64,000 nt of DNA from Minisyncoccota bacterium (GCA_041662205.1 JBAZSZ010000002.1:103266-167265), one strand, 5' to 3'. Positions 3,128 to 57,300 are shown, counted from the first letter of the stretch. Program-made: numbers and translations. The notes: generated by a model not told the origin, from the sequence alone.

Positions 3128-4126
3128 ATGAGACTGTTTTTTATTTTTTTATTTCTTATTTTCTCTTTACTTTTTTCTTCACAGACAGCTTTTGCAGTTT
3201 CTACAACCTCAGCTTCCTCTGATTGCAGTATTACTCTTAAATTAAAAGTAGGTTCAAAGGGTATCGAAGTAGAATGTCTTCAAAGAAAAATAGGGATTGT
3301 GGCTGATGGAAGCTTTGGACCTTTGACTAAAGCTAAAATTGTAGTTTTTCAATCAAATAATGGTTTAAAGATTGACGGAATAGTCGGTCCGCTCACACGG
3401 ACGGCTCTAAATGGTATAAAAGTAGGTAATATTTACCCAGAAGGTTGTATCTCAAATGTAGGATATAGTCCAACGACTGGCAAAAAATGTGATGGTACTG
3501 TAAAAAGTGTTGTAAATAAAGGCTTTAATCCTACTTCTATTCTTACCCCTACTCTTACTCCAAAACTTACTTCCAATAATGTAAATATGGATCAATTTAT
3601 TAAAACAGTGGTAGAAGTAAGTAGAAAATCTGGTTCCAGTGAAGCAAATCTTAAAATCATAGCGGATACTCTCAGGGAAACAATTCTAAATAGTGATGTT
3701 GATTATAATAAAAAATTTGAAGAATTGTTGACCAATGAAAGTAAATTGAGCACTAATTTAAAAACTAATATTTTTGCTTCTGTGTTTGATAAAGTTCTTA
3801 CAAAGACTTTTTCCTTTTTAGGGATTAAGCCTTCTATGGCTTTTGCTGCAACTGGTATACCGTTTGGTGGAGCTTTACTCTTTCCTTTTTTTTGTGAATA
3901 TAATGCAAGCTGGATGATAACTGTTTCACCTCTTCCCCCAACTTTTGTAACCCTTCTCTCTTATTATCCGGGAACTCAAGGATTTGCGAGTTATAATATA
4001 CCTTTTACTCGTTGGTTGCTCGGTGAATATGTAACACCTGGCGTTTGTTTAATACCAGGTGACCCTGTTATTGTTATTCCCACTACAGGTACTATTACTC
4101 CAAAGGTAGGTTCTTCTCCTATTTAG
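3128..4126 (+). CDS. Secreted protein with two putative peptidoglycan-binding (PG_binding_1-like) repeats
   Basis: Signal peptide MRLFFIFLFLIFSLLFSSQTAFA, followed by two repeats of the form GSKGIEVECLQRKIGIVADGSFGPLTKAKIVVFQSNNGLKIDGIVGPLTRTAL. Confidence 0.6.
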   Translation: MRLFFIFLFLIFSLLFSSQTAFAVSTTSASSDCSITLKLKVGSKGIEVECLQRKIGIVADGSFGPLTKAKIVVFQSNNGLKIDGIVGPLTRTALNGIKVGNIYPEGCISNVGYSPTTGKKCDGTVKSVVNKGFNPTSILTPTLTPKLTSNNVNMDQFIKTVVEVSRKSGSSEANLKIIADTLRETILNSDVDYNKKFEELLTNESKLSTNLKTNIFASVFDKVLTKTFSFLGIKPSMAFAATGIPFGGALLFPFFCEYNASWMITVSPLPPTFVTLLSYYPGTQGFASYNIPFTRWLLGEYVTPGVCLIPGDPVIVIPTTGTITPKVGSSPI

Positions 4127-4961
4127 AAGCAAGAGAAATTAGTATTATCCAATCATTGAGCGATAAATCTTCTGCTCTTTTGTTTTCCAGAGATGCCAAA
4201 TCCTTGTTTTGGCAGACATTCTTTAAATTACCAGAGAGTTTTTTTCTTTTATGGGCGAAGCCTGCTTTTACTATTTCCCAAAATTTTTCTTCGTTTATTT
4301 TGTTTTTTATAAAAGTTTTCCTAGAAATATTTTTTATAGAGATAATAGCTGAATCAACTTTTGGTGCGGGAGAAAAATATCTAGCGGGTACCTTCATTAT
4401 TAATTTTGGATCTCCGTAAGCTTTGACTGAAATGGAAAGGATGCTCTCTTTTTGGTCACGAGCGATGATTCTTTTGGCTACTTCATGCTGGACCATCAGA
4501 ACCATAAGTTCTGGTTGATGCAAACCACCTAAAAATTTTTTTAGAATTGCGCCAGTGATATTGTAAGGAATGTTGGCGATTATCTTATAGCGAAGAGATC
4601 TTAAATTTTTAGAATGGTCTGGCCGGGATAGGGACCCGGAGAACCGAGGACTTGATAAAAATTTGAAAATCTCTTCGCTGATATTAAATTCTAAAATATC
4701 CTCATTTATTAAAATTAATTCCCCCCCAGCAATTTCTTTTTCAAACCTTTCTTTTAAAAATTCAAAAAGTTCTCGGTCTTTTTCTACTGCTATTACAGTT
4801 TCAGATTTTTCTAAAAGTTTTTTTGTGAGAGCTCCTTTCCCCGGCCCTATTTCTAAAATTACATCTCCCTTTTTTATTTCACCCGCTTCAATAATTTTTT
4901 TTAAAGCCAGTTCAGACTTTAAAAAATTTTGCCCTAGTGATTTTTTTGCTTTGTGTTGCAT
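4119..4961 (-). CDS. ksgA: 16S rRNA (adenine1518/1519-N6)-dimethyltransferase KsgA/RsmA, carrying an in-frame palindromic element insertion
   Basis: Motifs LGQNFL and EIGPGKGALT (SAM-binding) plus NIPYNIT. The inserted segment SSPRFSGSLSRPDHS is encoded by repeat copy A. Confidence 0.85.
   Translation of the reverse strand: MQHKAKKSLGQNFLKSELALKKIIEAGEIKKGDVILEIGPGKGALTKKLLEKSETVIAVEKDRELFEFLKERFEKEIAGGELILINEDILEFNISEEIFKFLSSPRFSGSLSRPDHSKNLRSLRYKIIANIPYNITGAILKKFLGGLHQPELMVLMVQHEVAKRIIARDQKESILSISVKAYGDPKLIMKVPARYFSPAPKVDSAIISIKNISRKTFIKNKINEEKFWEIVKAGFAHKRKKLSGNLKNVCQNKDLASLENKRAEDLSLNDWIILISLASK
4606..4660 (+). repeat. GC-rich palindromic element, copy A (core ~4614-4652) inside ksgA
   Basis: agaATGGTCTGGCCGGGATAGGGACCCGGAGAACCGAGGACttgataaaa. 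The central CCGGG-ata-ggga-CCCGG hairpin is flanked by the inverted repeats GGTCTGG/CCGAGGACC and by outer ttttnGA/TnAnAAAA arms. Confidence 0.8.
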
Positions 4962-4965
4962 ATAT

Positions 4966-7047
4966 TTATAAGTAAATTGTTTTTATTCCACTAGCCTCCC
5001 CTTCTTTTTCTAATAAATCTGCTGGAATATCAGAAATAAATTCTGATGGAGCATTGATGTTGCGTGATCCAAAAATAGTGCGGAAATTTGCAAAGGATAA
5101 AAATAATTTTCTTCGGGCGCGGGTGAGCGCTACATAGAAAAGCCTTCTTTCTTCTTCACTATCTTCTCCAGACTGTCTCTCTCCTTGTCTTTGGTGCGGG
5201 AAAAGTCCGTCTTCAAGTCCAGTAATAAAAACGTATTCAAATTCAAGGCCTTTTGAGGCATGTACTGTCATTAATTTTATGGCATTTATTGTTTCTTTTT
5301 TCTCCTGATTTATCATTAAAGAATCCTGATCTGAGGCAAGGGAGGCATCTTCTAGAAGTTTTTCTACCCCTGCTCCATTTGTTAAATTGTCATATTTAAG
5401 AGCAAGGGTGGCGAGTTCTTTAATGTTTTCTAGTCTTTCCATATCTTCTTCAGTACCATTTTGTAATTCTTGTTCTATTCCAGATTTTTTGATTACAAAT
5501 TTTATTAATTCACTTGCTTTCAAGTTCGCTATTTTTTCTTTTATTTCTTCTAGTGTTTCGTAAAATTTGCTGATTTTTAACTGCATTTTTATTGGTAAGG
5601 TTTCTTTTTGGTTGGCAAAAATTTTCATCAAAGTTACTTTGCCGATGCCTCGTGCCGGGAAATTTATTATTCTTTTTATGTCAGATAGGCTGTCAGGATT
5701 TAAAGCTGCGCGCAAATATGCGAGAGTGTCTTTAATTTCTTTTCTTTCAAAAAATTTAACCCCTAAAACTTGGTAAGGGATATTATATCGAAGCATCGCT
5801 TCTTCGAGTGCTCGTGATTGGAAATTTGCGCGATATAAAACTGCGACTTCGCTGGCGATGCTTTTGCTCAGGTTCTCGGTCCCCCGGGTCCCTATCCCGG
5901 CCAGACCATTCTCAAAAGCATCACCAGCCCCGTCTATAATTTCTAAAATTTTTGTCGCGACAAATTCGGCTTCATCAGTTTCATCCAGAGCTTCATAGAG
6001 ACTTATCTTTTCACCTTCCACATTTTTTGTAAATAAATTTTTATCTGGCCGGTATTTATTTTTTTTGATTACTTCATTTGCCGCTTCTAAAATATTTTGA
6101 GTAGATCTATAATTTTGTTCTAATAAAATTATTTTGGCATTTGGGTAATCTTTTTCAAAACTTAAAATGTTTTTCAAATTTGCTCCGCGCCAAGAGTAAA
6201 TATTTTGATCGGCATCACCAACTACACAAATATTTTTATTATTTTCAGAAAGTAGCTTAGACATCAAGTATTGCACTTCATTGGTGTCTTGATATTCATC
6301 CACATGGATATATTCCCATTTTTCTTGATAAATTTTTCTGATTTCTGCATTTTCTTTTAATAATTTTGTCGCTTTAAGGAGCAGATCATCAAAGTCTAAA
6401 GAATTCTCTTTCATTTTTTGCTTCTCATATAAATTCCAAACCTGCGCTACTATTTTTCCGAGAGGACTTGAGCCCCCCTCTTCCCTCTCCGCATAATCTG
6501 CTAAATGTACAAACTTTCCTTTTTCTCGCGAGATTATATTTTTTATTTTTTTTGGATCGTATTGTTTTGGATCTATGCCGAGTTCTTTTAAGATATTTTT
6601 AATAAGGGTAGTCGCATCTCCTTCATCTAAAATAGTGAAATATCTTGTAAGTCCTAATAATCTAGCATTTTCTTTTATTATATAAACTCCTAGAGAGTGA
6701 AAAGTGGATACGAAAGGCGCTTCACTGGGAATACTTTTTTGGATGGTCTGGCCGGGATAGGGACCCGGAGAACCGAGGACCTCCGAAAAAGCATTCCCAG
6801 TGAAGCTGTTTTTTATTGCAACATCAATTCTTTCACGCATTTCCTTGGCAGCTTTATTGGTGAATGTCACTGCCAGAATTTTATCAGGAGACACTCCATT
6901 TTTTATTAAATTTACAATTCGGTGCGTAATGGTTTTTGTTTTTCCAGCTCCAGCTCCAGCAATAATCAAAAGTGGTCCCTTCATATGAAGCGCCGCCTCT
7001 TTTTGTTCAGGATTTAGGCCTTTAAGATGTTTTTCGTCTGTATCCAC
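4966..7047 (-). CDS. uvrD: UvrD/PcrA-family ATP-dependent DNA helicase carrying two in-frame palindromic element insertions
   Basis: Walker A GAGAGKTKT, DEYQDTN, and the VLYRANFQSRALEEA helicase motifs. Two extra loop segments, SEVLGSPGPYPGQTIQ and LAGIGTRGTENLS, are encoded by repeat copies C and B. Confidence 0.85.
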   Translation of the reverse strand: MDTDEKHLKGLNPEQKEAALHMKGPLLIIAGAGAGKTKTITHRIVNLIKNGVSPDKILAVTFTNKAAKEMRERIDVAIKNSFTGNAFSEVLGSPGPYPGQTIQKSIPSEAPFVSTFHSLGVYIIKENARLLGLTRYFTILDEGDATTLIKNILKELGIDPKQYDPKKIKNIISREKGKFVHLADYAEREEGGSSPLGKIVAQVWNLYEKQKMKENSLDFDDLLLKATKLLKENAEIRKIYQEKWEYIHVDEYQDTNEVQYLMSKLLSENNKNICVVGDADQNIYSWRGANLKNILSFEKDYPNAKIILLEQNYRSTQNILEAANEVIKKNKYRPDKNLFTKNVEGEKISLYEALDETDEAEFVATKILEIIDGAGDAFENGLAGIGTRGTENLSKSIASEVAVLYRANFQSRALEEAMLRYNIPYQVLGVKFFERKEIKDTLAYLRAALNPDSLSDIKRIINFPARGIGKVTLMKIFANQKETLPIKMQLKISKFYETLEEIKEKIANLKASELIKFVIKKSGIEQELQNGTEEDMERLENIKELATLALKYDNLTNGAGVEKLLEDASLASDQDSLMINQEKKETINAIKLMTVHASKGLEFEYVFITGLEDGLFPHQRQGERQSGEDSEEERRLFYVALTRARRKLFLSFANFRTIFGSRNINAPSEFISDIPADLLEKEGEASGIKTIYL
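5862..5919 (-). repeat. Palindromic element copy B (reverse orientation) inside uvrD
   Basis: ggttctcggtcccccgggtccctatcccggccagaccat, the reverse complement of the family core with variant termini. Confidence 0.8.
6737..6792 (+). repeat. Palindromic element copy C inside uvrD
   Basis: ggATGGTCTGGCCGGGATAGGGACCCGGAGAACCGAGGACCtccgaaaaag. The 39-nt core is identical to copy A. Confidence 0.8.
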
Positions 7048-11863: not shown

Positions 11864-12132
11864 TTTATTTATTGTTTTAAAATAAAATCCTTATTTTAAA
11901 AACAAAAAAGCTGTTTCACGTTTAACATGTTTCACATGAAACATAGTAACAAATTTTTAGTAAATTTTATGTCTTTTACTATAATATCCTTATTTTATAA
12001 GATATATACAGAAAAAATGCTAATAAAAGACAGTTTCATATTGTGTCCTTTATGAACAGTACTAACATAGTTATCCACAATTTTATTAAATCTTTAATTT
12101 ATAAGGTATTATTAAGGGACATCATTTTTTTG

Positions 12133-12203
12133 TGCGGCCAGAGAGAATCGGACTCTCGTCTCATCCTTGGCAAGGACGTGTTCTACCACTGAACCATGAC
12201 CGC
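12133..12203 (-). tRNA. tRNA-Gly (anticodon GCC); the T-loop reads UCCGAUU rather than UUCGAUU
   Basis: Manual fold. Acceptor GCGGUCA/UGGCCGC with one U-G pair, D-stem GUUC/GAAC, anticodon loop UUGCCAA, T-stem GAGAG/CUCUC. Confidence 0.65.
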
Positions 12204-12275
12204 AAATTTATCTATGTATAAAGACCACCGAATATGACCGCAAACTACTTATGTATAAAAACCACCGAATATGAC
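12204..12275. repeat. Two tandem ~34-bp direct repeats, each carrying a pseudo-copy of the first ~17 nt of the adjacent tRNA-Gly(GCC)
   Basis: tatgtataaagaccaccgaatatgaccgcaaa occurs twice. On the minus strand it reads gcggtcatattcggtgg, against the tRNA 5' end gcggtcatggttcagtgg. Confidence 0.7.
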
Positions 12276-12418
12276 CGCAAATTATATTTTAAAAAACTAT
12301 AAACAATTATAATATTTAATTAGAACTAATGCAATTATTAAATTAACCAATTAAATAAAGCTTATTTGTGAGTATTTTAAAAATAATGTATAATATGTAG
12401 TATTATTATATTAATTAC

Positions 12419-12490
12419 GCACTCGTAGTGAAATGGATATCACAATAGTCTTCGGAACTATTATTGAGGGTTCGAATCCCCCCGAGTGCA
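12419..12490 (+). tRNA. tRNA-Arg (anticodon UCG)
   Basis: Acceptor GCACUCG/CGAGUGC, D-stem GUGA/UCAC, anticodon stem AUAGU/ACUAU with loop CUUCGGA, T-loop UUCGAAU. A TATAAT-like -10 lies about 30 nt upstream. Confidence 0.7.
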
Positions 12491-14105
12491 CAAAACAAAA
12501 GTGGAACAGGATGTTAAAAATTTAATATCAAAAACACCCAAAGAAGTTTCACATGTAACTAATACGCTCGAAAAAGATGGTTTTGAGGCATATCTAGTTG
12601 GCGGGTGCGTTAGAGATCTTTTGATGTCTAAGGAGCCAAATGACTGGGATATCACAACTAATGCTAAACCAGAGCAAATTATAAGTCTTTTTGAAAAGAC
12701 TGTTTATGAGAATGGCTTTGGTACAGTAGCTGTGGTTGTTCCGCGTGAAACACATCAAGAGGATGTTTCACATGGAACAAACCCTATTCCCTTGTCAGAA
12801 GAGAAAAATATGATTATAGAAGTTACTCCTTATAGAATTGAAGCAAAATATAGCGATTTTAGACATCCAGATGAGGTGAAATTTAGTGATAAGCTGGAGG
12901 ACGATCTTAAAAGACGTGACTTTACGGTTAATGCCATGGCCTTAAACAGTAAAGGACATCTGGTTGATTTTTTTGATGGTATAAAGGACATTAACGAAAA
13001 GACAATAAAGGCAGTAGGGAATCCAGATGATCGTTTTGCTGAAGATGCTCTCAGGATGTTGCGCGCTGTACGTCTTTCCTGCCAGCTTAATTTTTCTGTG
13101 GCTTATGAAACGATGCAAAGTATTTTGAAAAATTCAGAGTTGATAAAAAAAATTTCTGAAGAAAGAATTCGTGATGAGTTTGTAAAAATAATTATGTCGG
13201 AAAATTCCGCGAATGGAATCGTGATGTTACAAAAATTTAATTTGTTAAAAAATATAATTCCTGAACTAGAAGAGGGAATAGGCTGTGAACAATCCGGTGA
13301 GCATATTTACGACGTTTGGAATCATTTACTTCATGCATTAGAACATGCGACAAACAAGAATTGGTCTTTGGAAATAAGGCTCGCAGCGCTTTTCCATGAT
13401 ATTGGGAAGCCCCGAAGTAGGCGTATTGCGGAGCGAATTGATAATTTATCAGGTCCTCGGTCTTTCGGGTCCCTACCCCGGCCAGACCATGACAAATCAT
13501 CAATTCGCTCCGCAAAGAAAAAATTTACTTTTTACGGTCATGAAGTTGTCAGCACGCGGATGGCAAAAAAAATAATGGAGAGATTAAAATTTCCTAAAAA
13601 AGAAATTGAGTTAGTAGAAAAACTTGTTCGCAATCATATGTTTTTTTCTGACACAGAATTAATCACGCTGTCAGCCGTGCGAAGAATTATTGCAAAAGTT
13701 GGAAAAGAAAATATTTGGTTATTGATGAATGTCCGTGAGTGCGACAGGGTAGGGATGAAGAAAAAAGAAACCCCATATCGCCTTCGGAAGTATTTTGCCA
13801 TGATTGAGGAAGCCCTGAGAGATCCTATTTCTGTCGGACAGTTGAAAATCAACGGTGAATTTATGATAAAAGAGCTTGGAATCACTCCCGGACCACGCAT
13901 GGGGTGGATTTTACATGCATTACTCGAAGAAGTGCTAGATGCTCCGGAGAAAAACACGGTAGAACATCTGTCGGAGTTGGTAAAATCTTTAAATATGTTG
14001 GGGGATACAGAACTAAAAACTCTTGGTCTACGTGGAAAAGAAAAAAAAGAAGAATTAGAAGAAGAAGAGGTTGTGAAGCTTCACAAAAAGCATGGAGTGA
14101 AATAA
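12486..14105 (+). CDS. cca: CCA-adding tRNA nucleotidyltransferase with an HD domain, carrying an in-frame palindromic element insertion
   Basis: GGCVRDLL, RRDFTVNA, and the HD motif LFHDIGKP...FYGHE with about 26 extra residues (..NLSGPRSFGSLPRPDHD..) between GKP and FYGHE, encoded by repeat copy D. The start is a GTG at 12486 (overlaps the tRNA-Arg 3' end by 5 nt) or at 12501; there is no early in-frame ATG. Confidence 0.8.
   Translation: MHKTKVEQDVKNLISKTPKEVSHVTNTLEKDGFEAYLVGGCVRDLLMSKEPNDWDITTNAKPEQIISLFEKTVYENGFGTVAVVVPRETHQEDVSHGTNPIPLSEEKNMIIEVTPYRIEAKYSDFRHPDEVKFSDKLEDDLKRRDFTVNAMALNSKGHLVDFFDGIKDINEKTIKAVGNPDDRFAEDALRMLRAVRLSCQLNFSVAYETMQSILKNSELIKKISEERIRDEFVKIIMSENSANGIVMLQKFNLLKNIIPELEEGIGCEQSGEHIYDVWNHLLHALEHATNKNWSLEIRLAALFHDIGKPRSRRIAERIDNLSGPRSFGSLPRPDHDKSSIRSAKKKFTFYGHEVVSTRMAKKIMERLKFPKKEIELVEKLVRNHMFFSDTELITLSAVRRIIAKVGKENIWLLMNVRECDRVGMKKKETPYRLRKYFAMIEEALRDPISVGQLKINGEFMIKELGITPGPRMGWILHALLEEVLDAPEKNTVEHLSELVKSLNMLGDTELKTLGLRGKEKKEELEEEEVVKLHKKHGVK
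13443..13499 (-). repeat. Palindromic element copy D (reverse orientation) inside cca
   Basis: aggtcctcggtctttcgggtccctaccccggccagaccatgac. The variant central hairpin ttcggg/ccccgg contains one G-U-type mismatch. Confidence 0.75.
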
Positions 14106-19567: not shown

Positions 19568-19831
19568 ATGTTAAACACCAAGAAAAAGCAAGCAGTAATA
19601 AAGAAAAATCAAATACACGAGAAAGACACAGGCTCTTCAGAGGTGCAGGTGGCTGTTTTGTCTACTCAGATTTCCGAATTGGCAAAACATTTAAAGAAAC
19701 ATAAAAAAGATAATCATTCTCGTCGAGGGTTGATCAAGATGGTCGCTGACAGACGTACTCATTTGAAATATTTGGAACGAAAAAGCAAGCCTCGTTACGC
19801 TGCATTGATGAAGAAAATGGATCTCGCGTAA
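19568..19831 (+). CDS. rpsO: 30S ribosomal protein S15
   Basis: [42 protein letters not shown]. The ATG at 19568 is preceded closely by a TAATAT -10-like hexamer. Confidence 0.9.
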
Positions 19832-19838
19832 AGGAAGG

Positions 19839-19970
19839 TTTTTAAAATTCTTTCTTGGCATACTTTTTATAAAGCAATCTATCTGGCGAAGCTTCGCCAG
19901 CGAACTGCTCGGCTCGTCAGCCTGCGCAAGGCTTTCTAAAAAATACGCCTGCAACAAATTTTAAAAATCT
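19839..19970. repeat. Structured GC-rich intergenic element, family T1, copy 1 (downstream of rpsO)
   Basis: tttttataaagcAATCTATCTGGCGAAGCTTCGCCAGCGAACTGCTCGGCTCGTCAGCCTGCGCAAGgctttctaaaaaa, with outer AT-rich inverted arms. It ends at the TATAAT of the NYN gene. Confidence 0.7.
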
Positions 19971-19984
19971 GCTATAATACACAC

Positions 19985-20494
19985 ATGACAGTTATAAAAC
20001 ATAAAGAACAAAGAGTTGGGGTTTTTATTGATACTCAAAATTTATATCATAGTGCTCGCAATCTATATCAGGCGCGGGTTAATTTCGGTGCAGTTTTGAA
20101 AGATGCAGTAGCGGGGAGGAAGCTCGTGCGGGCAGTGGCTTATGTTATCACCACTGAAGCAGGAGATGAAAAGAATTTTTTTGAAGCGCTTTCGAAGCTT
20201 GGTATAGAAACCAAAACTAAAGACTTACAAATATTTGCTGGGGGTGCAAAAAAAGCGGATTGGGATGTAGGGCTCGCTGTGGATGCGATAAAAATGTCAC
20301 CCCGCCTCGATTCCGTGGTAATAATTTCTGGTGATGGAGACTTCATTCCATTAGTGGAATATTTACAGACGAATGGTGTACAAGTAGAAGTCGTTTCATT
20401 TGGTAAATCAACATCTAGTAAACTCCGTGAAGTGGTAGATGATTTTGTGGACCTATCTGAAAATCCTAGAAAATATTTAATGGGGGTGAAATAA
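19985..20494 (+). CDS. NYN/LabA-like domain protein (PIN-like predicted RNase) sitting between rpsO and pnp
   Basis: VGVFIDTQNLYHSARN and VIISGDGDFIPLVEYLQ, matching the NYN-domain pattern. Confidence 0.7.
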   Translation: MTVIKHKEQRVGVFIDTQNLYHSARNLYQARVNFGAVLKDAVAGRKLVRAVAYVITTEAGDEKNFFEALSKLGIETKTKDLQIFAGGAKKADWDVGLAVDAIKMSPRLDSVVIISGDGDFIPLVEYLQTNGVQVEVVSFGKSTSSKLREVVDDFVDLSENPRKYLMGVK

Positions 20495-20676
20495 TTTCTA
20501 TCTTTTTGCTTTTTGGTTATAAAATGCTAGGATAAATAATAGTTCATTAAAATTATTTATTAGTTAATCAGGTTCGCGTTTAGACACAAAGTAGTGTTTC
20601 CACTTATTATTTAAGTTGTGAAACAACACTGTAGTCTGGATACGAACCCTGCCCGCCTCTGGTGGGTGAAAAAAAG

Positions 20677-22791: not shown

Positions 22792-22818
22792 AATTCTTTA
22801 TTTTATAAACTTTTCTTT

Positions 22819-22888
22819 GGTACGGATTTTTTGAAGCTTAAAAAATCCTGAAGTTCTCGGCTCGTCAGCCTCGAAACCCCGCGAAAAG
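22819..22888 (+). repeat. Structured intergenic element, family T2, copy 1 (downstream of pnp)
   Basis: GGTACGGATTTTTTgaagcttAAAAAATCCTGAAGTTCTCGGCTCGTCAGCCTCGAAACCCC. It shares the CTCGGCTCGTCAGCC core with T1. Confidence 0.7.
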
Positions 22889-22913
22889 TTATATAATAAA
22901 GAATTAACGCTAT

Positions 22914-24887: not shown

Positions 24888-24902
24888 GATAGGAGTATAA
24901 CA

Positions 24903-24955
24903 TTTCCCCCACCCCAGGGATAGGGGAAATCCCCTATCCCTGGGGTGGGGGAAAC
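24903..24955. repeat. Perfect 53-bp palindrome (25-bp arms, 3-nt spacer) between divergent metK and the dksA-like gene
   Basis: TTTCCCCCACCCCAGGGATAGGGGA-aat-TCCCCTATCCCTGGGGTGGGGGAAA. GC-rich in an AT-rich genome. Its GGGATAGGG centre resembles the core of the in-frame element family. Confidence 0.85.
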
Positions 24956-27902: not shown

Positions 27903-28178
27903 TTAGGCAACCATGTCTTTCAAACCTTTTGCAGGTCGGAATTTTGGAACTTTCTTTGCAGCTACTTTTACTTGCTCTCCAGTCTTTGGATTGCGAGCCA
28001 TTCTTGCAGCTCTTGCCTTTACGGAAAAGATTCCGAATCCAGCGATTGAAACTTCACCACCCTTTTTCAAGGTCTGGATGATAGCGTCAAACATTGAATC
28101 AACGATTTCCTCAGCTTGTACTTTTGTACCACCGAGCTTTCCATGTACTAATTCGGCTAATGCTTGTTTATTCATATA
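27903..28178 (-). CDS. hup: DNA-binding protein HU
   Basis: MNKQALAELVHGKLGGTKVQAEEIVDSMFDAIIQTLKKGGEVSIAGFGIFSVKARAARMARNPKTGEQVKVAAKKVPKFRPAKGLKD. The ORF-track extension upstream to 28442 is unsupported. Confidence 0.85.
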   Translation of the reverse strand, partial: YMNKQALAELVHGKLGGTKVQAEEIVDSMFDAIIQTLKKGGEVSIAGFGIFSVKARAARMARNPKTGEQVKVAAKKVPKFRPAKGLKDMVA

Positions 28179-28313
28179 TATTTTAAGTTGATATTTATAA
28201 TATTTCGACCAATTAACCCTTATTTTTGATACCTCTACATTATATATCAAGGGTTTTTTAAGGCAAGTCTTTTGAAAAATTAAAAAATCTTTATAAATAC
28301 CAATCTTTTTAGG

Positions 28314-28385
28314 GTACAGATTTTTCAATAAAAGATTAGACTTAAAAAATCCTGAAGTTTGCTCGCCGTCGCTCGCAAAACCCCC
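28314..28385 (+). repeat. Family T2, degenerate copy 3 (downstream of rny, upstream of hup)
   Basis: GGTACAGATTTTTcaataaaagattagacttAAAAAATCCTGAAGTTTGCTCGCCGTCGCTCGCAAAACCCCC. Confidence 0.55.
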
Positions 28386-28410
28386 TAAAAAAATTGTATT
28401 TAAAAGATTT

Positions 28411-29940
28411 TTACCGCGCGTATTCAATAATTCGGGTTTCACGAATCATAGTAACTTTTATTTCTCCTGGATATTTGAGTTCTTGTTCTATTTTTATAGC
28501 TATATCGCGAGCCATAATTTTGGCTTCAGCATCTGATATTTTTTCTGGAGTAACAAAGATACGGATTTCACGCCCAGCTTGGAGAGCATATGATTTTTCA
28601 ACAGCGGGGAAAGCGTTTACTAGTGCTTCGAGTTCTTGAAGTCTTTTTAGGTAATTTTCTACTGAGTCTCGGCGTGCGCCAGGGCGTCCACCCGAAATCG
28701 AGTCTGCTGTTTGCACAATGATGGACTCAATAGTTTCATAAGGGTAATCCTCATGGTGGCTTTTCATGGCAGTGATGATGCGTTCATCTGCTCCGAATTT
28801 TTGTAAAATACGGATACCTATTTCAACATGCGTGCCTTGCACTTCATGATCTAGCGCTTTACCAATATCGTGCACCAAGGCCCCAGCTTTAGCTATCGCT
28901 ACGTCTGCACCTAACTCTTCTGCGAGCATGCCAGCGATATGGGCCATCTCAATAGAATGTTGCAAAACGTTTTGTCCGTAACTTGTGCGGAAATACAATC
29001 GTCCGATGATGGCGATGATACGTGGATCAAAATTAAATATTCCACATTCATAGACTGCTTGTTCTCCTTTTTCTTTTATTATTTTATTTATTTCTTCTTT
29101 GGCTTTTTCCACTAGCTCTTCGATCTTGGCTGGTTGAATACGGCCGTCTAAGATCAGATTTTCTAAAGCTAGTCTGGCGACTTGTCTCCTAATAGGGTCA
29201 AATGAAGAAATCACTATGGAGCCAGGGGTATCATCCACAATGAGTTCCACTCCAGAAGCTCTTTCAAAAGCGCGTATATTTCTGCCTTCTTTCCCGATTA
29301 TTTTACCTTTGATTTCATTGTTTGGAATAGCGACTACGGTGGTCATCAATTCAGAAGCCGTGCTAGAAGATAGGCGCTGAATAGAAGTTGCCAAAATATC
29401 TTTGGCTCTGCGGTCTAGTTTTTCTTCGTTACTGTTTTCTAGTTTTTGGATTCTAACTAAAATATCTTCTTCATATTTTTTTTCAACATCTTTTAAAAGC
29501 TCATCTTTGGCTTCTACTTCAGTTAATTTTGCTACTCTTTCTAATTCTATTATTTTTTCTGCTTCTATTTTAGATACTTTTTCTTGGATTTTTTTTATTT
29601 CTTCTACTTTTACTTTAATATTTTCTACTTCTTTGTTTACTTCGACTTGTCGCGCATCTAAAAACTCGTCTTTTTTAATGAGTCTTTTTTCTGTTTCTTT
29701 AAATTCAATTTCTTTCTTTTTTTCTTCTTCTTTTAGATAAGTGAGTTGTTCTTCAGATTTCTTTTTTGCTTCGTCGGTGATTTTTTGTGCTTCTTCTTTT
29801 GCGCCGACCATCATTTGTTTGATGTCTATTTCAATGGATCTTCTTTTTCCAAGGGCAATAATCAGACGAAGATAATACCCGATGCCAACACCAAAAAAGA
29901 GCGCTATGGCACTTATTAGAATTATTATTGTTATACTCAT
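28411..29940 (-). CDS. rny: Ribonuclease Y
   Basis: N-terminal TM helix, coiled coil, KH domain (GKIIGKEGRNIRAFE), and HD domain (HSIEMAHIAG...LVHDIGKA). Confidence 0.9.
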   Translation of the reverse strand: MSITIIILISAIALFFGVGIGYYLRLIIALGKRRSIEIDIKQMMVGAKEEAQKITDEAKKKSEEQLTYLKEEEKKKEIEFKETEKRLIKKDEFLDARQVEVNKEVENIKVKVEEIKKIQEKVSKIEAEKIIELERVAKLTEVEAKDELLKDVEKKYEEDILVRIQKLENSNEEKLDRRAKDILATSIQRLSSSTASELMTTVVAIPNNEIKGKIIGKEGRNIRAFERASGVELIVDDTPGSIVISSFDPIRRQVARLALENLILDGRIQPAKIEELVEKAKEEINKIIKEKGEQAVYECGIFNFDPRIIAIIGRLYFRTSYGQNVLQHSIEMAHIAGMLAEELGADVAIAKAGALVHDIGKALDHEVQGTHVEIGIRILQKFGADERIITAMKSHHEDYPYETIESIIVQTADSISGGRPGARRDSVENYLKRLQELEALVNAFPAVEKSYALQAGREIRIFVTPEKISDAEAKIMARDIAIKIEQELKYPGEIKVTMIRETRIIEYAR

Positions 29941-32515: not shown

Positions 32516-33322
32516 ATGATTATCGACAAATACAACAAAAGAGCCAAGAAAATAAATTCACTTTTATGCGTTGGTCTGGATACGGATTTTGCAAAAATTC
32601 CAAAAAGATTTTTGAAAAAGAAATTTCCGCAATTTGAATTTAATAAATGGATTATCGAAGAGACCCACGAATATGCCGCTGCTTATAAACCCAATAGCGC
32701 TTTTTATGAAGCTAGGGGTGATAAAGGAATACGAGAATTAAAAATGACGATGGATTATCTGATAAAAAATCATCCAGATATTTTTACGATTCTTGACGCC
32801 AAGAGGGGGGACATAGGAAATACGAATAATGGTTACGTTGCTTCTATTTTCGATTGGTTTGGCTTTGACGCTTTCACTGTGTATCCATATTTAGGACAGG
32901 AAGCAGTGCAACCGATTTTAGATAGAAAAGATAAAGGAGTGATTTTGCTTTGCCGTACTTCAAATCCTGGAGCAAAAGATTTTCAAGATTTAAAGATTAA
33001 TGGAAAACCACTTTGGCAGATTGTGGCAGAGAAAGTTTCTAAAGAGTGGAATAAGAATAAAAATTGTATGCTCGTCGTCGGGGCGACTTATCCTAAAGAG
33101 ATGAAAAAAATTCGCTCTATTGTGGGGGATATGACTTTTCTAGCTCCAGGCGTGGGTGCTCAAGGTGGGGAATTAAAAGAAATGCTAAAAGCTGGATTAA
33201 ACAGTAAAGGTTTAGGCTTAATAATAAATTCTTCTAGGGGTATAATTTTTTCCAATAATCCAAAAATTGAAGCCAAAAAACTACAAGACGAGATTAGGAA
33301 ACACAAGCAGGAAATTAATTAA
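32516..33322 (+). CDS. pyrF: Orotidine-5'-phosphate decarboxylase (type 2)
   Basis: LCVGLDTD and ILDAKRGDIGNT. Confidence 0.8.
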   Translation: MIIDKYNKRAKKINSLLCVGLDTDFAKIPKRFLKKKFPQFEFNKWIIEETHEYAAAYKPNSAFYEARGDKGIRELKMTMDYLIKNHPDIFTILDAKRGDIGNTNNGYVASIFDWFGFDAFTVYPYLGQEAVQPILDRKDKGVILLCRTSNPGAKDFQDLKINGKPLWQIVAEKVSKEWNKNKNCMLVVGATYPKEMKKIRSIVGDMTFLAPGVGAQGGELKEMLKAGLNSKGLGLIINSSRGIIFSNNPKIEAKKLQDEIRKHKQEIN

Positions 33323-33333
33323 AAAAGAAAATA

Positions 33334-33445
33334 ACTAAAATAGGAAAATATCAAAATTTATAAAGCAATCTATCTGGTGTTGCTACACCAGCGAACTGCT
33401 CGGCCCGTCGGCCTGCGCAAGGCTTTCTAAATTTTTTATTTTCCT
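33334..33445. repeat. Family T1, copy 2 (downstream of pyrF), flanked by a perfect 18-bp inverted repeat
   Basis: aactaaaataggaaaata...ataaagcAATCTATCTGGTGTTGCTACACCAGCGAACTGCTCGGCCCGTCGGCCTGCGCAAGgctttctaaa...tattttcctattttagtt. Compensatory substitutions relative to copy 1 in both internal hairpins. Confidence 0.75.
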
Positions 33446-33631
33446 ATTTTAGTTTTCCACTTTTTCCACTTTTATCTAGGCTTGCTTCTGTGTGTAGAAA
33501 TGTTACTATCATTTTTAATGTATCAACAGAGATTAAAAGAGAAAAAGTCTGGGGAAAAGTTTGCCACTTCTATCTTTTTAAGCTCCATTATCAATATTTT
33601 ATTTTAAAACCCCTTTTGGGGTTATTTTTTT

Positions 33632-37248: not shown

Positions 37249-37602
37249 TTAAGCGGATGTTACCTGTCGGAGTCCTGTTCCATCGTCGCTTGTTTTCCTT
37301 ATTGCCGCTACAGGCTGTAATCCCTTGCCGTCATCCTGGCCCATTGCCTTTGTAGTTGCGATAGTCCAGCCGTCTTCTTTTGCGAGGTCCTGCTGCCCTG
37401 TTGCCTTCATAAGAATACCCTGATCCACGGTAACGGCGTCGGTGATAGTTGCGCCTTCTTCTTTTGCGAGGTCCTGCTGCCCTGTTGCCTTCATAAGAAT
37501 ACCCTGATCCACGGTAACGGCGTCGGTGGCTGCGAACGCGATAGCGGCGCACAGTACTGTAAAACAACAGCATAGCACTACCAATAAAAGTTTCTTCTTC
37601 AT
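37249..37602 (-). CDS. Small secreted protein with two 28-aa tandem repeats and atypically high GC
   Basis: Signal peptide MKKKLLLVVLCCCFTVLCAAIAFA, a strong AGGAGGG Shine-Dalgarno sequence, repeats (A)TDAVTVDQGILMKATGQQDLAKE(E/D)G, and local GC of about 55-59% against about 35% nearby. Confidence 0.6.
   Translation of the reverse strand: MKKKLLLVVLCCCFTVLCAAIAFAATDAVTVDQGILMKATGQQDLAKEEGATITDAVTVDQGILMKATGQQDLAKEDGWTIATTKAMGQDDGKGLQPVAAIRKTSDDGTGLRQVTSA
37374..37541. repeat. 84-bp tandem direct repeat x2 inside the 37249-37602 gene
   Basis: cttcttttgcgaggtcctgctgccctgttgccttcataagaataccctgatccacggtaacggcgtcggtg occurs twice with a period of 84 bp. Confidence 0.8.
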
Positions 37603-39212: not shown

Positions 39213-40079
39213 TTATTGACTGTCGCTTCCTGAATTATTAGAATTATCTAATTTCAATTTATCTAATTCTATTTTTACTTCGTCTTTTAAAGATTTAACT
39301 GCATCTCTAAGTGCTTGATGAGCATCTTTAATAAGATTTTGAGTATCTTGTGCAAGAGTTACTAATTTAGCTTTTTCTGTTGCAGAAAGTTTATTAACTG
39401 AGGTTGCTAGAATTGTGTTTATTTCTGTAATTTTTACATTAGCAGTATTTAGTTTTGTTTCAGCTGTTGTTACAAAAGCTTTAGCGTTCGTAACATTTAC
39501 TCCCTTCAATGCTAGTTTGGCTATTTGATTGTTAATTCTATCTTTTAAATTATTCATTCTTGCAACTGCCGCATCAAATCTCTGTAATGCATTTTCTCTT
39601 CCAGAAATTCTTGTCTCGCCATCTAATTTTTTGGCTAAATTTTTTTCTCCTTTAAGGATAGATTTTAAATCCTCTAGTTTATTTTTTGCTACTTCACGTA
39701 GTGCCCTGTTTGCATCATCACCACTATCAGATGAATTGTCGATACGCACTCCAGCTGCATTAAAATCTCCTCTACCTTGGTCTGGGGTCCCATCATCATC
39801 ACCAGGAGTATTGTCTATGCGTACTCCAGCTGCATTAAAATCTCCTCTACCTTGGTCTGGGGTCCCATCATCACCAGGAGTATTATCTACACGTACTCCG
39901 GCAGCGTTGAAATCACCAGAACCTTGGTCAGGAGTTCCATCATCACTACCACCTCCACTACTACTAACGCCACTGGAAGAATTACCAGAACTTCCATCTT
40001 TTGCTTGAGAGTTATTTGCATTCATCATAAACACTAGCATTAAAACAATCACAAACAAACCTATATTTTTTTTCATCAT
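39213..40079 (-). CDS. Secreted protein with three tandem 22-23-aa RGD-containing repeats and a C-terminal coiled coil
   Basis: Signal peptide MMKKNIGLFVIVLMLVFMMNANNSQA. Repeats GDDGTPDQG(R/S)GDFNAAGVR(I/V)DNTP x3. The DNA repeat period is 66-69 bp over about 39740-39950. Confidence 0.6.
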   Translation of the reverse strand: MMKKNIGLFVIVLMLVFMMNANNSQAKDGSSGNSSSGVSSSGGGSDDGTPDQGSGDFNAAGVRVDNTPGDDGTPDQGRGDFNAAGVRIDNTPGDDDGTPDQGRGDFNAAGVRIDNSSDSGDDANRALREVAKNKLEDLKSILKGEKNLAKKLDGETRISGRENALQRFDAAVARMNNLKDRINNQIAKLALKGVNVTNAKAFVTTAETKLNTANVKITEINTILATSVNKLSATEKAKLVTLAQDTQNLIKDAHQALRDAVKSLKDEVKIELDKLKLDNSNNSGSDSQ

Positions 40080-52795: not shown

Positions 52796-52812
52796 AGAAA
52801 GTTTTATAAAAT

Positions 52813-52875
52813 AAAGTTTTGGAATGGTCTGGCTGGGATAGGGACCCAGAGAACCGAGGACCTGAGAAAACTTTG
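52813..52875 (+). repeat. Palindromic element copy F, intergenic (HIT gene / recJ), with compensatory stem changes
   Basis: aaagttttggaATGGTCTGGCTGGGATAGGGACCCAGAGAACCGAGGACCtgagaaaacttt. The stem CTGGG/CCCAG replaces CCGGG/CCCGG, a double compensatory change. The outer arms aaagtttt/aaaacttt extend the palindrome to about 63 bp. Confidence 0.8.
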
Positions 52876-52895
52876 ATTTTATAAAACTTTCTATA

Positions 52896-55082: not shown

Positions 55083-56591
55083 ATGCGAGATAGAATTTTT
55101 TATACAATTTGTTTTGGTTTTTTATTTGGAGTGCTGACGCGCTCTTTTATTTTGGTAGATTTATATTTGGTTATTTTGTTTAGTGTGATTGCTGGTGCAT
55201 TGTTTATATTTTTTACATTAGTCTCAAAAAGTGATTGGACCTGTCTGCGCAGGCAGGGAATTATAGTTTCTATTTTTATTTTGGCTTTTAGTTTAGGTGT
55301 TTACAGATTTAATATGGTGGATGTGCCGAATTCTCTTGTTTTTGAAAATCAAGTGGGACAAGAAGTAACTTTTTCTGGAGAAATTACAGACGAGCCTAGT
55401 ATAAAAGAGAATAACCAGCAATTGATAGTAAAAATAAAAAAAGAAAAAGATAAAACACATATTTTATTAACCACTAATTTAGATATAGATTATAAATATG
55501 GAGATGAGATAAATTTTTTTGGCGAATTAGAAAAGCCGGGAAATTTTATTACTGATCAGGGAAAAGAATTTGACTATATAAATTATTTACGGAAAGATGG
55601 GATTTTGTATGTGATGAGTTATCCAACAATTTCCATTGTTTCGCGCGGGAATGGTAACTCAATTCAAAGCATCTTATTTTCTATTAAAGATAAGTTTTTG
55701 GAGAAAATAAATTTTGCTATTAATGCCCCTGAGAATCTTCTTATGGGCGGGCTTATTTTGGGCGAAAAATCTTCTTTTAGCCAGGAGCTGAGACAGAATT
55801 TTGTGGATACTGGTACGATACACATCGTTGCTCTTTCTGGATACAATGTGACAATTGTGGCTGAATGGATTATGAAATTATTCTCTTATGTAAATTTTGG
55901 CTTGCCTGCACAGGCAGGTATTGGAATGGGAATATTAACAATAATTTTATTCATTATAATGACTGGTGGAATTTCGACCGCTATTCGGGCGGGGATAATG
56001 GCGACTTTGGCATTAGTGGCCCGCGCGACTGGGCGCAACTATGATGTCGCGCGAGCTTTATTATTGGCTGGGTTGTTTATGATAATTCTTAATCCTTTTC
56101 TTCTTGTTTTTGATGCTTCTTTTCAACTTTCTTTTTTGGCGACAGCCGCTGTGATATTTATTGCTCCTAGAATTGAAAAATATTTTCTATGGGTACCGAA
56201 AACTTTTGAGTTACGAGATATAGTATCAGTCACTTGCGCTGCTTATATTTTTGTTTTTCCTTTTATTCTTTATAAAATGGGTAATTTTTCACTCGTAGCC
56301 TTACCAGCTAATATTTTAATTTTGCCCTTTATTCCTCTTACGATGATGTTTGGGTTTGTTACTGGTTTTCTTGGACTTGTTTATTATGTATTGGCAGTGC
56401 CTGTGGGTTATCTTTCTTATTTATTTTTACATTATGAGCTCGGAGTAATAAGTTTTTTTGCTGATCTACCTTTTGCGTCTTTTACTTTTCCAGATTTTCC
56501 ACTTTTGCTAACAGTTTTAATATACATCTATTTTATTTATAAACTTTTTGGCAGAAATATAATAAGTTTTTTTAGAGAAAATCAAGAATAA
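55083..56591 (+). CDS. comEC: ComEC/Rec2-family competence channel protein (DUF4131 + Competence domain only; no MBL domain)
   Basis: Polytopic membrane protein with the Competence-domain motif GTIHIVALSGYNVTIVA. Confidence 0.7.
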   Translation: MRDRIFYTICFGFLFGVLTRSFILVDLYLVILFSVIAGALFIFFTLVSKSDWTCLRRQGIIVSIFILAFSLGVYRFNMVDVPNSLVFENQVGQEVTFSGEITDEPSIKENNQQLIVKIKKEKDKTHILLTTNLDIDYKYGDEINFFGELEKPGNFITDQGKEFDYINYLRKDGILYVMSYPTISIVSRGNGNSIQSILFSIKDKFLEKINFAINAPENLLMGGLILGEKSSFSQELRQNFVDTGTIHIVALSGYNVTIVAEWIMKLFSYVNFGLPAQAGIGMGILTIILFIIMTGGISTAIRAGIMATLALVARATGRNYDVARALLLAGLFMIILNPFLLVFDASFQLSFLATAAVIFIAPRIEKYFLWVPKTFELRDIVSVTCAAYIFVFPFILYKMGNFSLVALPANILILPFIPLTMMFGFVTGFLGLVYYVLAVPVGYLSYLFLHYELGVISFFADLPFASFTFPDFPLLLTVLIYIYFIYKLFGRNIISFFRENQE

Positions 56592-56600
56592 TGTTTTTAA

Positions 56601-56662
56601 GGGGTTTCGAGGCTGTCGAGCCGAGAATTTCAGGATTTTTCAAGCTTCGAAAAATTTGTACC
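56601..56662 (-). repeat. Family T2, copy 2 (reverse orientation) between the convergent comEC and sodA genes
   Basis: The reverse complement reads GGTACAAATTTTTCGAAGCTTGAAAAATCCTGAAATTCTCGGCTCGACAGCCTCGAAACCCC. Confidence 0.7.
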
Positions 56663-56688
56663 GGCAAAAATATTACTCTTGATTTTCT

Positions 56689-57300
56689 CTACTGAGAATT
56701 TTTGAAATTTTCCTCTACCATTTCCCAATTTAGATTTGCGAAAAAGTCTTCAACATATTGTTTTTTACCACTAGGTTGATAGTCTGTCACAAAAGCGTGT
56801 TCCCACATATCAATACCCAAAATCCAATTAAGACCATTTAATTGTCCTAAATGATGCTCATCTATCCAAGCATCTATAAATTGATTTGTTTCTTTGTCCC
56901 AATATAATACGGCCCAGCCGATCCCGCGAGTCATGGCTAGAGATTTAAACTTAGTAAGCCAAGCATCAAAAAATAATCCTTGTTTTTCTATAGCATTTTT
57001 AAATGTAGAATTTGTTGGTAGTGGCCTTGCTCCTCCTTCAAGAGATTTGAAATAATATTCATGATTACGCATGCCGTTGAATTCAAAACCAAATCTTCTA
57101 TGTAATTCTCCTATCAAATAAATAACACCCGGTGTTAATTCTCTTATTTCAGACATTTTGTCATATTCTTCAAGCTTTTCCAAAATTAGGTTTGTGTTTT
57201 TTACATAGCCAGCATAAAGCTTCAAATGTTCTTCAATATTTTTTGAAGAGATACCTTTTAAAGTTCCAATATTAAATTTTTTTTCTTCAAACTTCTTCAT
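56689..57300 (-). CDS. sodA: Fe/Mn superoxide dismutase
   Basis: LHRRFGFEFNGMRNHEYYF and GIDMWEHAFVTDYQ (D-x-W-E-H). Confidence 0.85.
   Translation of the reverse strand: MKKFEEKKFNIGTLKGISSKNIEEHLKLYAGYVKNTNLILEKLEEYDKMSEIRELTPGVIYLIGELHRRFGFEFNGMRNHEYYFKSLEGGARPLPTNSTFKNAIEKQGLFFDAWLTKFKSLAMTRGIGWAVLYWDKETNQFIDAWIDEHHLGQLNGLNWILGIDMWEHAFVTDYQPSGKKQYVEDFFANLNWEMVEENFKNSQ

Follow-up and report, generated by a model that had tools for sequence, protein, structure and literature searches.

Probable mobile palindromic repeats capped by a conserved three-way junction in Nomurabacteria-type Patescibacteria

The DNA analyzed here is a 64,000-nt stretch of the genome of a Minisyncoccota bacterium, which we refer to as the window. 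It contains two copies, A and B, of a GC-rich palindromic element that we term T1, and both lie downstream of housekeeping genes, with Pfam assigning the upstream products to Ribosomal_S15 (rpsO, copy A) and OMPdecase (pyrF, copy B). Copy A is flanked by the rpsO stop codon (19829-19831) upstream and by the −10 hexamer TATAAT (19973-19978) and ATG (19985) of an NYN-domain gene downstream. An earlier, sequence-only reading of this DNA had located both elements, and the whole hairpins delimited below lie near where it drew them. It had also placed each element directly upstream of the next gene's −10, which is true of copy A but not of copy B, where pyrF ends at 33322 and argG is ~180 nt away with other features between.

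19839-19968, plus strand: T1 copy A, whole element with type I arms; outer stem 19839-19849 / 19958-19968; conserved imperfect arms CTTTCTTGGCATAC / ATACGCCTGCAAC with the core in the middle, an arrangement with 44 type-I copies elsewhere
19863-19943, plus strand: core of copy A (covariance model R1, 104.5 bits)
19871-19875 / 19931-19935, plus strand: inner P1 of copy A
19883-19889 / 19894-19900, plus strand: P2 of copy A, loop AGCT
19906-19908 / 19926-19928, plus strand: outer P3 of copy A
19911-19914 / 19919-19922, plus strand: hairpin 2 of copy A, loop CGTC
33333-33454, plus strand: T1 copy B, whole element with type II arms, stem AACTAAAATAGGAAAATATCAAAATTTATAAAGC ... GCTTTCTAAATTTTTTATTTTCCTATTTTAGTT
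33354-33434, plus strand: core of copy B (R1, 104.9 bits)

The neighboring DNA has features of its own. In all 13 species compared (window 19973-19985 plus 12 loci), a TATAAT or TACAAT hexamer ends 6-8 nt 5' of the ATG of the NYN-domain gene, and this spacing suggests that the NYN transcript is leaderless. Between copy B and argG (33455-33631) lie promoter-like hexamers and two short ORFs (41 and 60 aa), and a terminator-like hairpin, AACCCCTTTTGGGGTT, with a T-run at 33608-33623 sits immediately 5' of the argG ATG.

The two copies share a conserved 75-nt unit (19866-19940 and 33357-33431) with 91% identity, and a 44-nt core pattern finds two exact matches in the window versus 0 expected from 100 shuffles. 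Each copy forms a three-way junction made up of P1, P2, and a P3 that carries hairpin 2, with the closing helix TTTATAAAGC/GCTTTCTAAA. P2 reads CTGGCGA-AGCT-TCGCCAG in copy A and CTGGTGT-TGCT-ACACCAG in copy B, and hairpin 2 reads GGCT-CGTC-AGCC and GGCC-CGTC-GGCC, respectively, so that the changes in copy B (GGTGT/ACACC in P2, C-G for T-A in hairpin 2) are compensated and pairing is preserved. The hairpin differences that had been quoted from the sequence alone (CTGGCGAAGCTTCGCCAG versus CTGGTGTTGCTACACCAG and GGCTCGTCAGCC versus GGCCCGTCGGCC) are correct, and both keep the pairing. Outside the 75-nt unit is a long AT-rich stem, the arms of which are unrelated in sequence between A and B while each arm pair is self-complementary.

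A pattern scan of species-representative genomes returned 105 stretches, ~94 of them true copies, at 89 low-GC loci in 54 assemblies; T1 is not confined to its two sites in the window. The remaining matches are chance occurrences in high-GC genomes, and the scan gave no match in viral contigs. Nearly all hosts are labeled as Nomurabacteria, Paceibacterota, or Patescibacteria (CPR) metagenome-assembled genomes (MAGs), and the S15, NYN-domain, and PNPase proteins of the window are 78-97% identical to those of several T1-bearing MAGs, so the window probably belongs to the same lineage. Copy number is low, from a handful to a few tens per genome. A literature search found no published description of T1, and we regard it as an uncatalogued family of the REP/MITE/Rickettsia palindromic element kind.

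The fold is conserved across the family. We scored covariation over 85 distinct 81-nt copies (set A2), using a structure composed of P1, P2, outer P3, and hairpin 2. Standard pairs make up 95.0% of cells compared with 77.4% when partners are shuffled, and the covariation score is 0.391 versus 0.089 for shuffled partners (none of 500 shuffles reaches it) and 0.045-0.090 for slid partners. Six pairs of P2 covary, the inner pair of hairpin 2 occurs as U-A, G-C, and C-G, and position 11/73 of P1 runs through all four Watson-Crick pairs. RNAalifold, run independently, arrives at the same three-way junction. The 22 bases fixed in the search pattern cannot vary among the copies it finds, which exaggerates their conservation; the evidence comes from the other positions and from the diverged copies found with R1, in which the 'invariant' G-C pairs of hairpin 2 and the outer P3 (UGC/GCA versus UUC/GAA) also covary. 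P3 also accommodates, in four copies, an extension by a 40-nt hairpin. Both the structure and its conservation are established, and the proposal of a conserved structure of ~110-130 nt held by compensatory change, made from two copies, now rests on 85 distinct ones.

The strand on which the element was originally written is not the one that folds best. Its reverse complement gives the more stable fold in 86 of 90 copies (mean, -51.2 versus -44.2 kcal/mol), and on the written strand the A2 stems contain 51 A.C/C.A cells against 8 G.U, spread over at least ~20 independent loci, which places wobble pairs on the reverse strand. On that strand, furthermore, a conserved U.C mismatch in P1 becomes G.A and the UC/UGC loop in P3 becomes GCA/GA (GA/GA in family 2, described below). 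Deamination bias on the coding or leading strand would be expected to produce the opposite asymmetry. A GC-skew test of the replication strand, positive for 68 of 94 copies, is uninformative because it correlates with the coding strand (r = 0.69).

This strand preference, with its G.A mismatches and purine-rich internal loops, speaks for a rival in which T1 copies are genes of one family, encoding on the reverse strand a small structured RNA that acts in trans (a ribozyme, protein-binding scaffold, or retroelement RNA), with the long stem serving as a processing stalk; the tolerated P3 extension likewise resembles the variable stems of functional RNAs. We find such a gene family highly improbable. 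The 44 type-I copies lack a conserved adjacent promoter, their flanks sharing no motif beyond GTTTT, intact copies lie inside an ORF in both orientations, and close relatives have no copies at the same loci. At the gathering threshold, Rfam 15 identifies only four tRNAs in the whole window, and a permissive scan of 19780-20000 yields nothing above noise (E ≥ 0.9, scores no higher than 16.7 bits where the cut-offs are 34-67), ribozyme families included. A hammerhead-like string, CUGACGAG, is confined to copies with one hairpin-2 variant. The sequence-only reading had also offered an unrecognised structured RNA; the missing promoter and Rfam match do not support a dedicated one, and presence and absence, inversion, and nested remnants at orthologous sites (see below) point to mobile DNA.

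Two specific RNA motifs were considered and rejected. The hammerhead core consists of CUGANGA ... GAAA ... UH around a three-way junction; CUGACGAG, by eye, appears on the reverse strand only with the T-A pair of hairpin 2 and is lost in the G-C and C-G variants, and a hammerhead was dismissed because the string is variant-specific. A K-turn in P3 does not fit the loop sizes or the positions of the G.A pairs.

The covariation and strand data also bear on whether T1 acts as duplex DNA, either as a cruciform or as a site for a nucleoid, segregation, or recombination protein such as a XerC-like recombinase. T1 is palindromic and orientation-tolerant, and a XerC-like gene adjoins rpsO in the window and in relatives. 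However, P2 and hairpin 2 vary freely in sequence while pairing is kept, which argues for a folded single strand rather than sequence-specific recognition of a duplex; moreover, an asymmetry of wobble pairs between strands is meaningless for duplex DNA, and most copies are not near the recombinase gene. A duplex site is scarcely credible on these grounds.

The core of T1 is ~80 nt, and the whole element with its arms spans ~110-160 nt. Outside the core we distinguish 32 arm types, and the two arms of a single copy pair at 14.3 of 20 positions, as against 10.5 when they are matched with arms from other copies. Three types recur at many loci with conserved imperfect arms, namely I (as in copy A, 44 copies), II (as in copy B), and III (at atpD/atpC), and many copies carry locus-specific arms directly on the 75-nt core. 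P2 and hairpin-2 variants are 2.5-3 times more often shared between copies of the same assembly than between copies of different ones, and the P2 variant CGCAAAGCTTTGCG is present at three loci of one MAG and nowhere else.

Searching with R1 reveals diverged relatives of T1, both in the window and, as family 3 and a GC-rich variant, in other genomes.

22809-22889, plus strand: family-2 diverged relative downstream of pnp, same architecture (R1)
56591-56673, minus strand: family-2 copy in the convergent ComEC/sodA slot (R1)
28296-28396 (approximate ends), plus strand: third family-2-like copy, between the genes for RNase Y and HU

The element downstream of pnp has a long stem, an AT-rich P2 with an AGCT loop, and a CUCGGCUCGUCAGCCU hairpin, and its outer P3 is UUC/GAA in place of the UGC/GCA of T1. 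The element at 28296-28396 is antisense to RNase Y and HU, as both genes are on the minus strand. The 179-aa ORF at 27903-28442 (minus strand) has its HU (Bac_DNA_binding) domain confined to residues 90-178, and its N-terminal half is read across the family-2-like element, so that the upstream start is probably an artifact created by the repeat.

Several other structured or repetitive stretches occur in the window. The 167-nt gap between the NYN-domain gene and pnp (20495-20661) folds much better on its plus strand than on its minus strand (-51.4 versus -38.4 kcal/mol) and may, from this modeling, be a pnp leader. The 57-nt gap between metK (minus strand) and a dksA-like gene (plus strand) at 24888-24944 has a GC content of 0.54 and folds to -55 kcal/mol, the densest structure in the window. 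Tandem repeats on the minus strand, inside or beside ORFs, comprise three 75-nt and two 84-nt units (39716-39937, 37360-37527). Two tandem 35-nt units with starts 37 nt apart and 94% identity occupy 12213-12284, between tRNA-Gly (12132-12203) and tRNA-Arg (12419-12491).

Across genomes, T1 copies lie in short intergenic gaps, typically starting 10-30 nt from the adjacent ORFs as delimited by crude ORF calls. Sites common to several species include rpsO/NYN, ribonucleotide reductase/PduO-type adenosyltransferase, atpD/atpC, the position after rpsT, the position next to fpg, ComEC/sodA, and a sugar kinase/transketolase pair. The raw counts suggest an orientation bias, with 39 copies aligned with both neighboring genes and 14 against, but this bias shrinks to 20 versus 14 in tandem contexts once orthologous loci are collapsed, with a further 15 convergent and 8 divergent classes. 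In seven orthologous locus groups, T1 is present in both orientations.

Comparison of orthologous sites shows turnover. T1 occupies the rpsO/NYN slot in nine of 13 species. In L097 it is inverted, with a remnant of a partial forward 3' arm alongside. In place of T1, L107 has a canonical terminator, AAAAAACGGCG-TATA-CGCCGTTTTTT (609-659), L064 has a different GC-rich palindrome, CCCCTTGTCAGGGG ... CCCCTGACAAGGGG (4157-4248), L072 has an unrelated AT-rich hairpin (2211-2291), and L094 has only the promoter and no element. Three species carry a copy between xerC and rpsO instead. The ComEC/sodA gap (55083-57300 in the window) similarly holds family 2 in the window and T1, in both orientations, in four other species. 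Partial duplicates of the type-I 3' arm (GCCTGCGACAAATTTT... and, twice, CTGCAACAAGTTTT) stand beside complete copies at L097 (1105-1268) and L059 (near 6700-6780), and their sequences suggest insertion into or beside an older copy.

Where T1 is present in the rpsO/NYN slot, on the other hand, the intergenic identity between species is 0.87 compared with 0.50 at third codon positions of the flanking genes, which implies either selection in place or homogenization by gene conversion among copies. This identity is one reason to ask whether T1 is a dedicated cis-acting RNA at transcript ends (a terminator, a 3'-end stabilizer, an RNase III site, or a protein-binding junction) that has spread by its usefulness. 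In several species copies follow rpsO, rpsT, atpD, ribonucleotide reductase, and other genes, T1 fills the slot that the canonical terminator occupies in L107, its junction nucleotides are invariant, and its fold is very stable. Canonical terminators, furthermore, are not enriched in the window (16 versus 13.8 in shuffles), so other hairpins could do that job. Against this reading, no U-tract enrichment follows the stem on either strand: the next 8 nt contain 2.40 T on the written strand and 2.12 on the reverse, versus a background of 2.45, and only 12 of 86 copies have at least five T in those 8 nt on either strand. In addition, the near-random orientation, the two orientations at one locus, the eight locus classes between divergent genes, and the copies inside an ORF and between atpD and atpC are poorly suited to such a role, as are wobble pairs on a strand that the neighboring genes often do not transcribe. 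We therefore consider a dedicated cis-acting RNA unlikely, though it can coexist with mobility as an exaptation. The term 'REP-like terminators', proposed from the sequence alone, is fair as to REP-like distribution; the terminator half of it is undercut by the absent U-tract enrichment, the near-random orientation, the eight divergent classes, and the copy inside an ORF.

T1 was also compared with four other element types. An intrinsic terminator has the hairpin, but the U-tract enrichment is absent and orientation in tandem contexts is 20 versus 14. For an integron attC site, the ends AAAACTC ... GAGTTTT do not fit RYYYAAC ... GTTRRRY by eye, and the neighbors are housekeeping genes (rpsO, pyrF, atpD). 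A REP or REPIN would carry the conserved GTAG, which is not seen by eye, the type-I arms having GTAC and GTAT, and P2 is no inverted repeat of P3, as a REPIN doublet would require. For a MITE with target-site duplication, the flanks continue as inverted and not as direct repeats.

T1 can also be found inside a protein-coding gene. In L025, a full type-I T1 lies in frame in the gene for a 906-aa M1 aminopeptidase, between the Peptidase_M1 and ERAP1_C domains, where it adds FRPSFLAQLFIKQSISQSFGSELLGYPPAQGFLKSVPATRG. Inserts of at least ~20 aa, mostly ~40 aa, are present at this single site in ~43 of 120 Nomurabacteria homologues, and the others have no insert and read W-x-I-P-I-x-FKxN-KVNFGE. 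Among these inserts are T1 in both sense and antisense orientation, families 2 and 3 in antisense orientation, and other types. We compared nine alleles at the DNA level. R1 and the DNA sequence identify filled alleles in L110 (106.7 bits, antisense) and L111 (94.8 bits, sense), and there is no model match in the empty alleles L108 and L109. No target-site duplication is seen at the junctions (empty L116, filled L110), where clean junctions are few and the history is layered, and no defined target sequence is seen at them either. L025 and L112 retain a remnant of an earlier antisense left arm beside the later insertion, and the L115 allele looks, from its sequence, like a deletion remnant.

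Peptides encoded by T1 are otherwise rare in proteins. For T1-encoded peptides in other proteins, a word-index search gave one match and an exhaustive HMMER search three, two of which are short ORFs. An 88-aa ORF at 19691-19957 (minus strand) is antisense to rpsO and takes its start from the reverse-strand reading of T1; its peptide is the in-frame insert of the aminopeptidase allele P0008 and also corresponds to two short 'hypothetical proteins' in public databases. The L025 aminopeptidase, at ~residues 206-227, and P0004 have a second, shorter insert, NPSSKRRGGFPLPLRRGSAKG, at a different site. The public protein P0123 (1075 aa) contains five stretches that resemble residues 10-33 of the reverse-strand T1 peptide weakly (35% identity), which may reflect a repeat protein or a chance match between low-complexity sequences.

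A second palindromic family in the window, with the cap TGGTCTGGCCGGGATAGGGACCCGGAGAACCGAGGACC on long locus-specific stems, has four of its five window copies inside genes and one between genes.

4602-4666, plus strand: second palindromic family copy
5845-5909, minus strand: second palindromic family copy
6731-6795, plus strand: second palindromic family copy
13426-13490, minus strand: second palindromic family copy
52812-52876, plus strand: second palindromic family copy

These copies are in frame in ksgA (4119-4961), in the CCA-adding enzyme gene cca (12486-14105), and twice, in both orientations, in the UvrD helicase gene (4966-7047).

Taken together, T1 is a family of short, non-coding palindromic repeats of Nomurabacteria-type Patescibacteria that is probably mobile and selfish and has no gene of its own. 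Its behavior is that of Rickettsia palindromic elements, REPs, and MITEs: orthologous sites show gain, loss, inversion, and nesting of copies, related families take each other's place in a slot, orientation is near random, and in-frame insertions occur. A dedicated terminator or RNA gene does not readily account for the turnover, the exchange between families, the orientation, and the in-frame insertions. Several observations count against mobility, among them the low copy number, the rarity of T1 peptides in proteins, and the lack of a visible target-site duplication or defined target sequence at the aminopeptidase junctions. The 0.87 versus 0.50 identity in the rpsO/NYN slot also counts against it, as a selfish insert undergoing decay would not be so similar between species. 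An element conserved this strongly in place may in addition serve the host at transcript boundaries. A Pfam search of the 60 ORFs of the window found no transposase, HUH, or reverse-transcriptase gene, and the sole recombinase is XerC-like.

In the mobile account, one DNA or RNA strand folds into a long AT-rich stem capped by the GC-rich three-way junction, and this fold would be a requirement of the mobilizing machinery. The machinery would probably recognize the fold in a single-stranded intermediate, on the complement of the written strand, because the wobble pairs lie there. New copies would land preferentially at gene ends that already bear a hairpin or an element, inside it or next to it, with the intergenic copies sitting between a stop codon and the next promoter. 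If transcribed, in either orientation, such a copy would place a very stable hairpin at a transcript boundary, which may be tolerated or useful and yet not be the defining function of T1. A more specific proposal is that the invariant three-way junction is the working part of a new kind of structure-dependent mobile element that uses a folded single-stranded intermediate and homes to gene-end hairpins and to one loop of an essential peptidase. That intermediate would be either DNA or an RNA whose core is catalytic or recruits proteins, and the element would move in genomes where no transposase can be recognized; we give this version only a slim chance of being right.

The genomes of CPR bacteria/Patescibacteria, which count among the smallest and most streamlined known, are commonly said to contain little mobile DNA. 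In these genomes, several related palindromic families persist across dozens of species and fill many of the longer intergenic gaps, and palindromic elements are written into housekeeping proteins (the M1 aminopeptidase and, in the window, the products of ksgA, uvrD, and cca). This bears on the evolution of streamlined genomes and on the origin of new peptide segments. The repeats also matter for annotation, as they generate spurious ORFs, for example the 88-aa one on the minus strand at 19691-19957, and wrongly extended N termini, as in the HU ORF at 27903-28442. The covariance model R1 provides a ready lineage marker, and the preference for folding on one strand offers a handle on the mechanism of mobilization.

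T1 shares features with several known systems. Like an intrinsic, bidirectional terminator, it is a stable hairpin right after a stop codon with an A-rich 5' and a T-rich 3' stem end, and its slot is the canonical terminator slot in L107. Unlike one, it is 110-160 nt long and branched, has no U-tract enrichment beyond the stem, is found between divergent genes, in the atp operon, and in an ORF, and forms a sequence family across species. The Correia/NEMIS, ERIC, and BOX elements are likewise intergenic repeats of ~100-150 bp with inverted arms and, in the case of BOX (A-B-C), a modular build; they are co-transcribed in either orientation as RNA hairpins that RNase III or RNase E can cleave. 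Correia elements, however, are bounded by fixed 26-bp terminal inverted repeats, with a TA duplication, whereas the arms of T1 vary by locus and no duplication is seen.

Other likenesses are found among elements with strand-specific hairpins. REP, BIME, and REPIN sequences are dispersed, extragenic, imperfect palindromes at gene ends that show compensatory change and no target duplication, and their strand-specific fold fits recognition of single-stranded DNA; REP elements can also stabilize the upstream mRNA. REPs are ~35 nt, with a conserved 5' GTAG and hundreds of copies mobilized by RAYT, whereas T1 is larger and branched, has few copies and no conserved GTAG, and can be intragenic, and no RAYT (Y1 HUH) domain was found in the 60 ORFs of the 64-kb window. 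PATEs, which derive from IS200/IS605, resemble T1 in having no strict terminal inverted repeats and no target duplication, hairpins in one DNA strand, and an orientation set by something other than transcription. They have two similar subterminal hairpins and a fixed tetra- or pentanucleotide target, while T1 consists of a single large hairpin that encloses two dissimilar ones, and neither a target motif nor a TnpA was identified for it.

By analogy, the closest match in behavior is to the Rickettsia palindromic elements, reportedly described by Ogata and colleagues in 2000. The resemblance is one of behavior only. T1 differs in belonging to another phylum (Patescibacteria/CPR), in having a conserved GC-rich three-way-junction cap with a stem of free sequence, and in being mostly intergenic, with in-frame copies in one gene only, at a hot spot common to its sister families. 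As in T1, the Rickettsia elements are palindromic repeats of ~100-150 bp that form a long hairpin, belong to several related families in a small, reduced genome, lack a transposase of their own, and are conserved across species. They too lie both between genes and in frame within the genes of conserved proteins, adding a peptide of ~40 aa to proteins whose homologues are without the insert.
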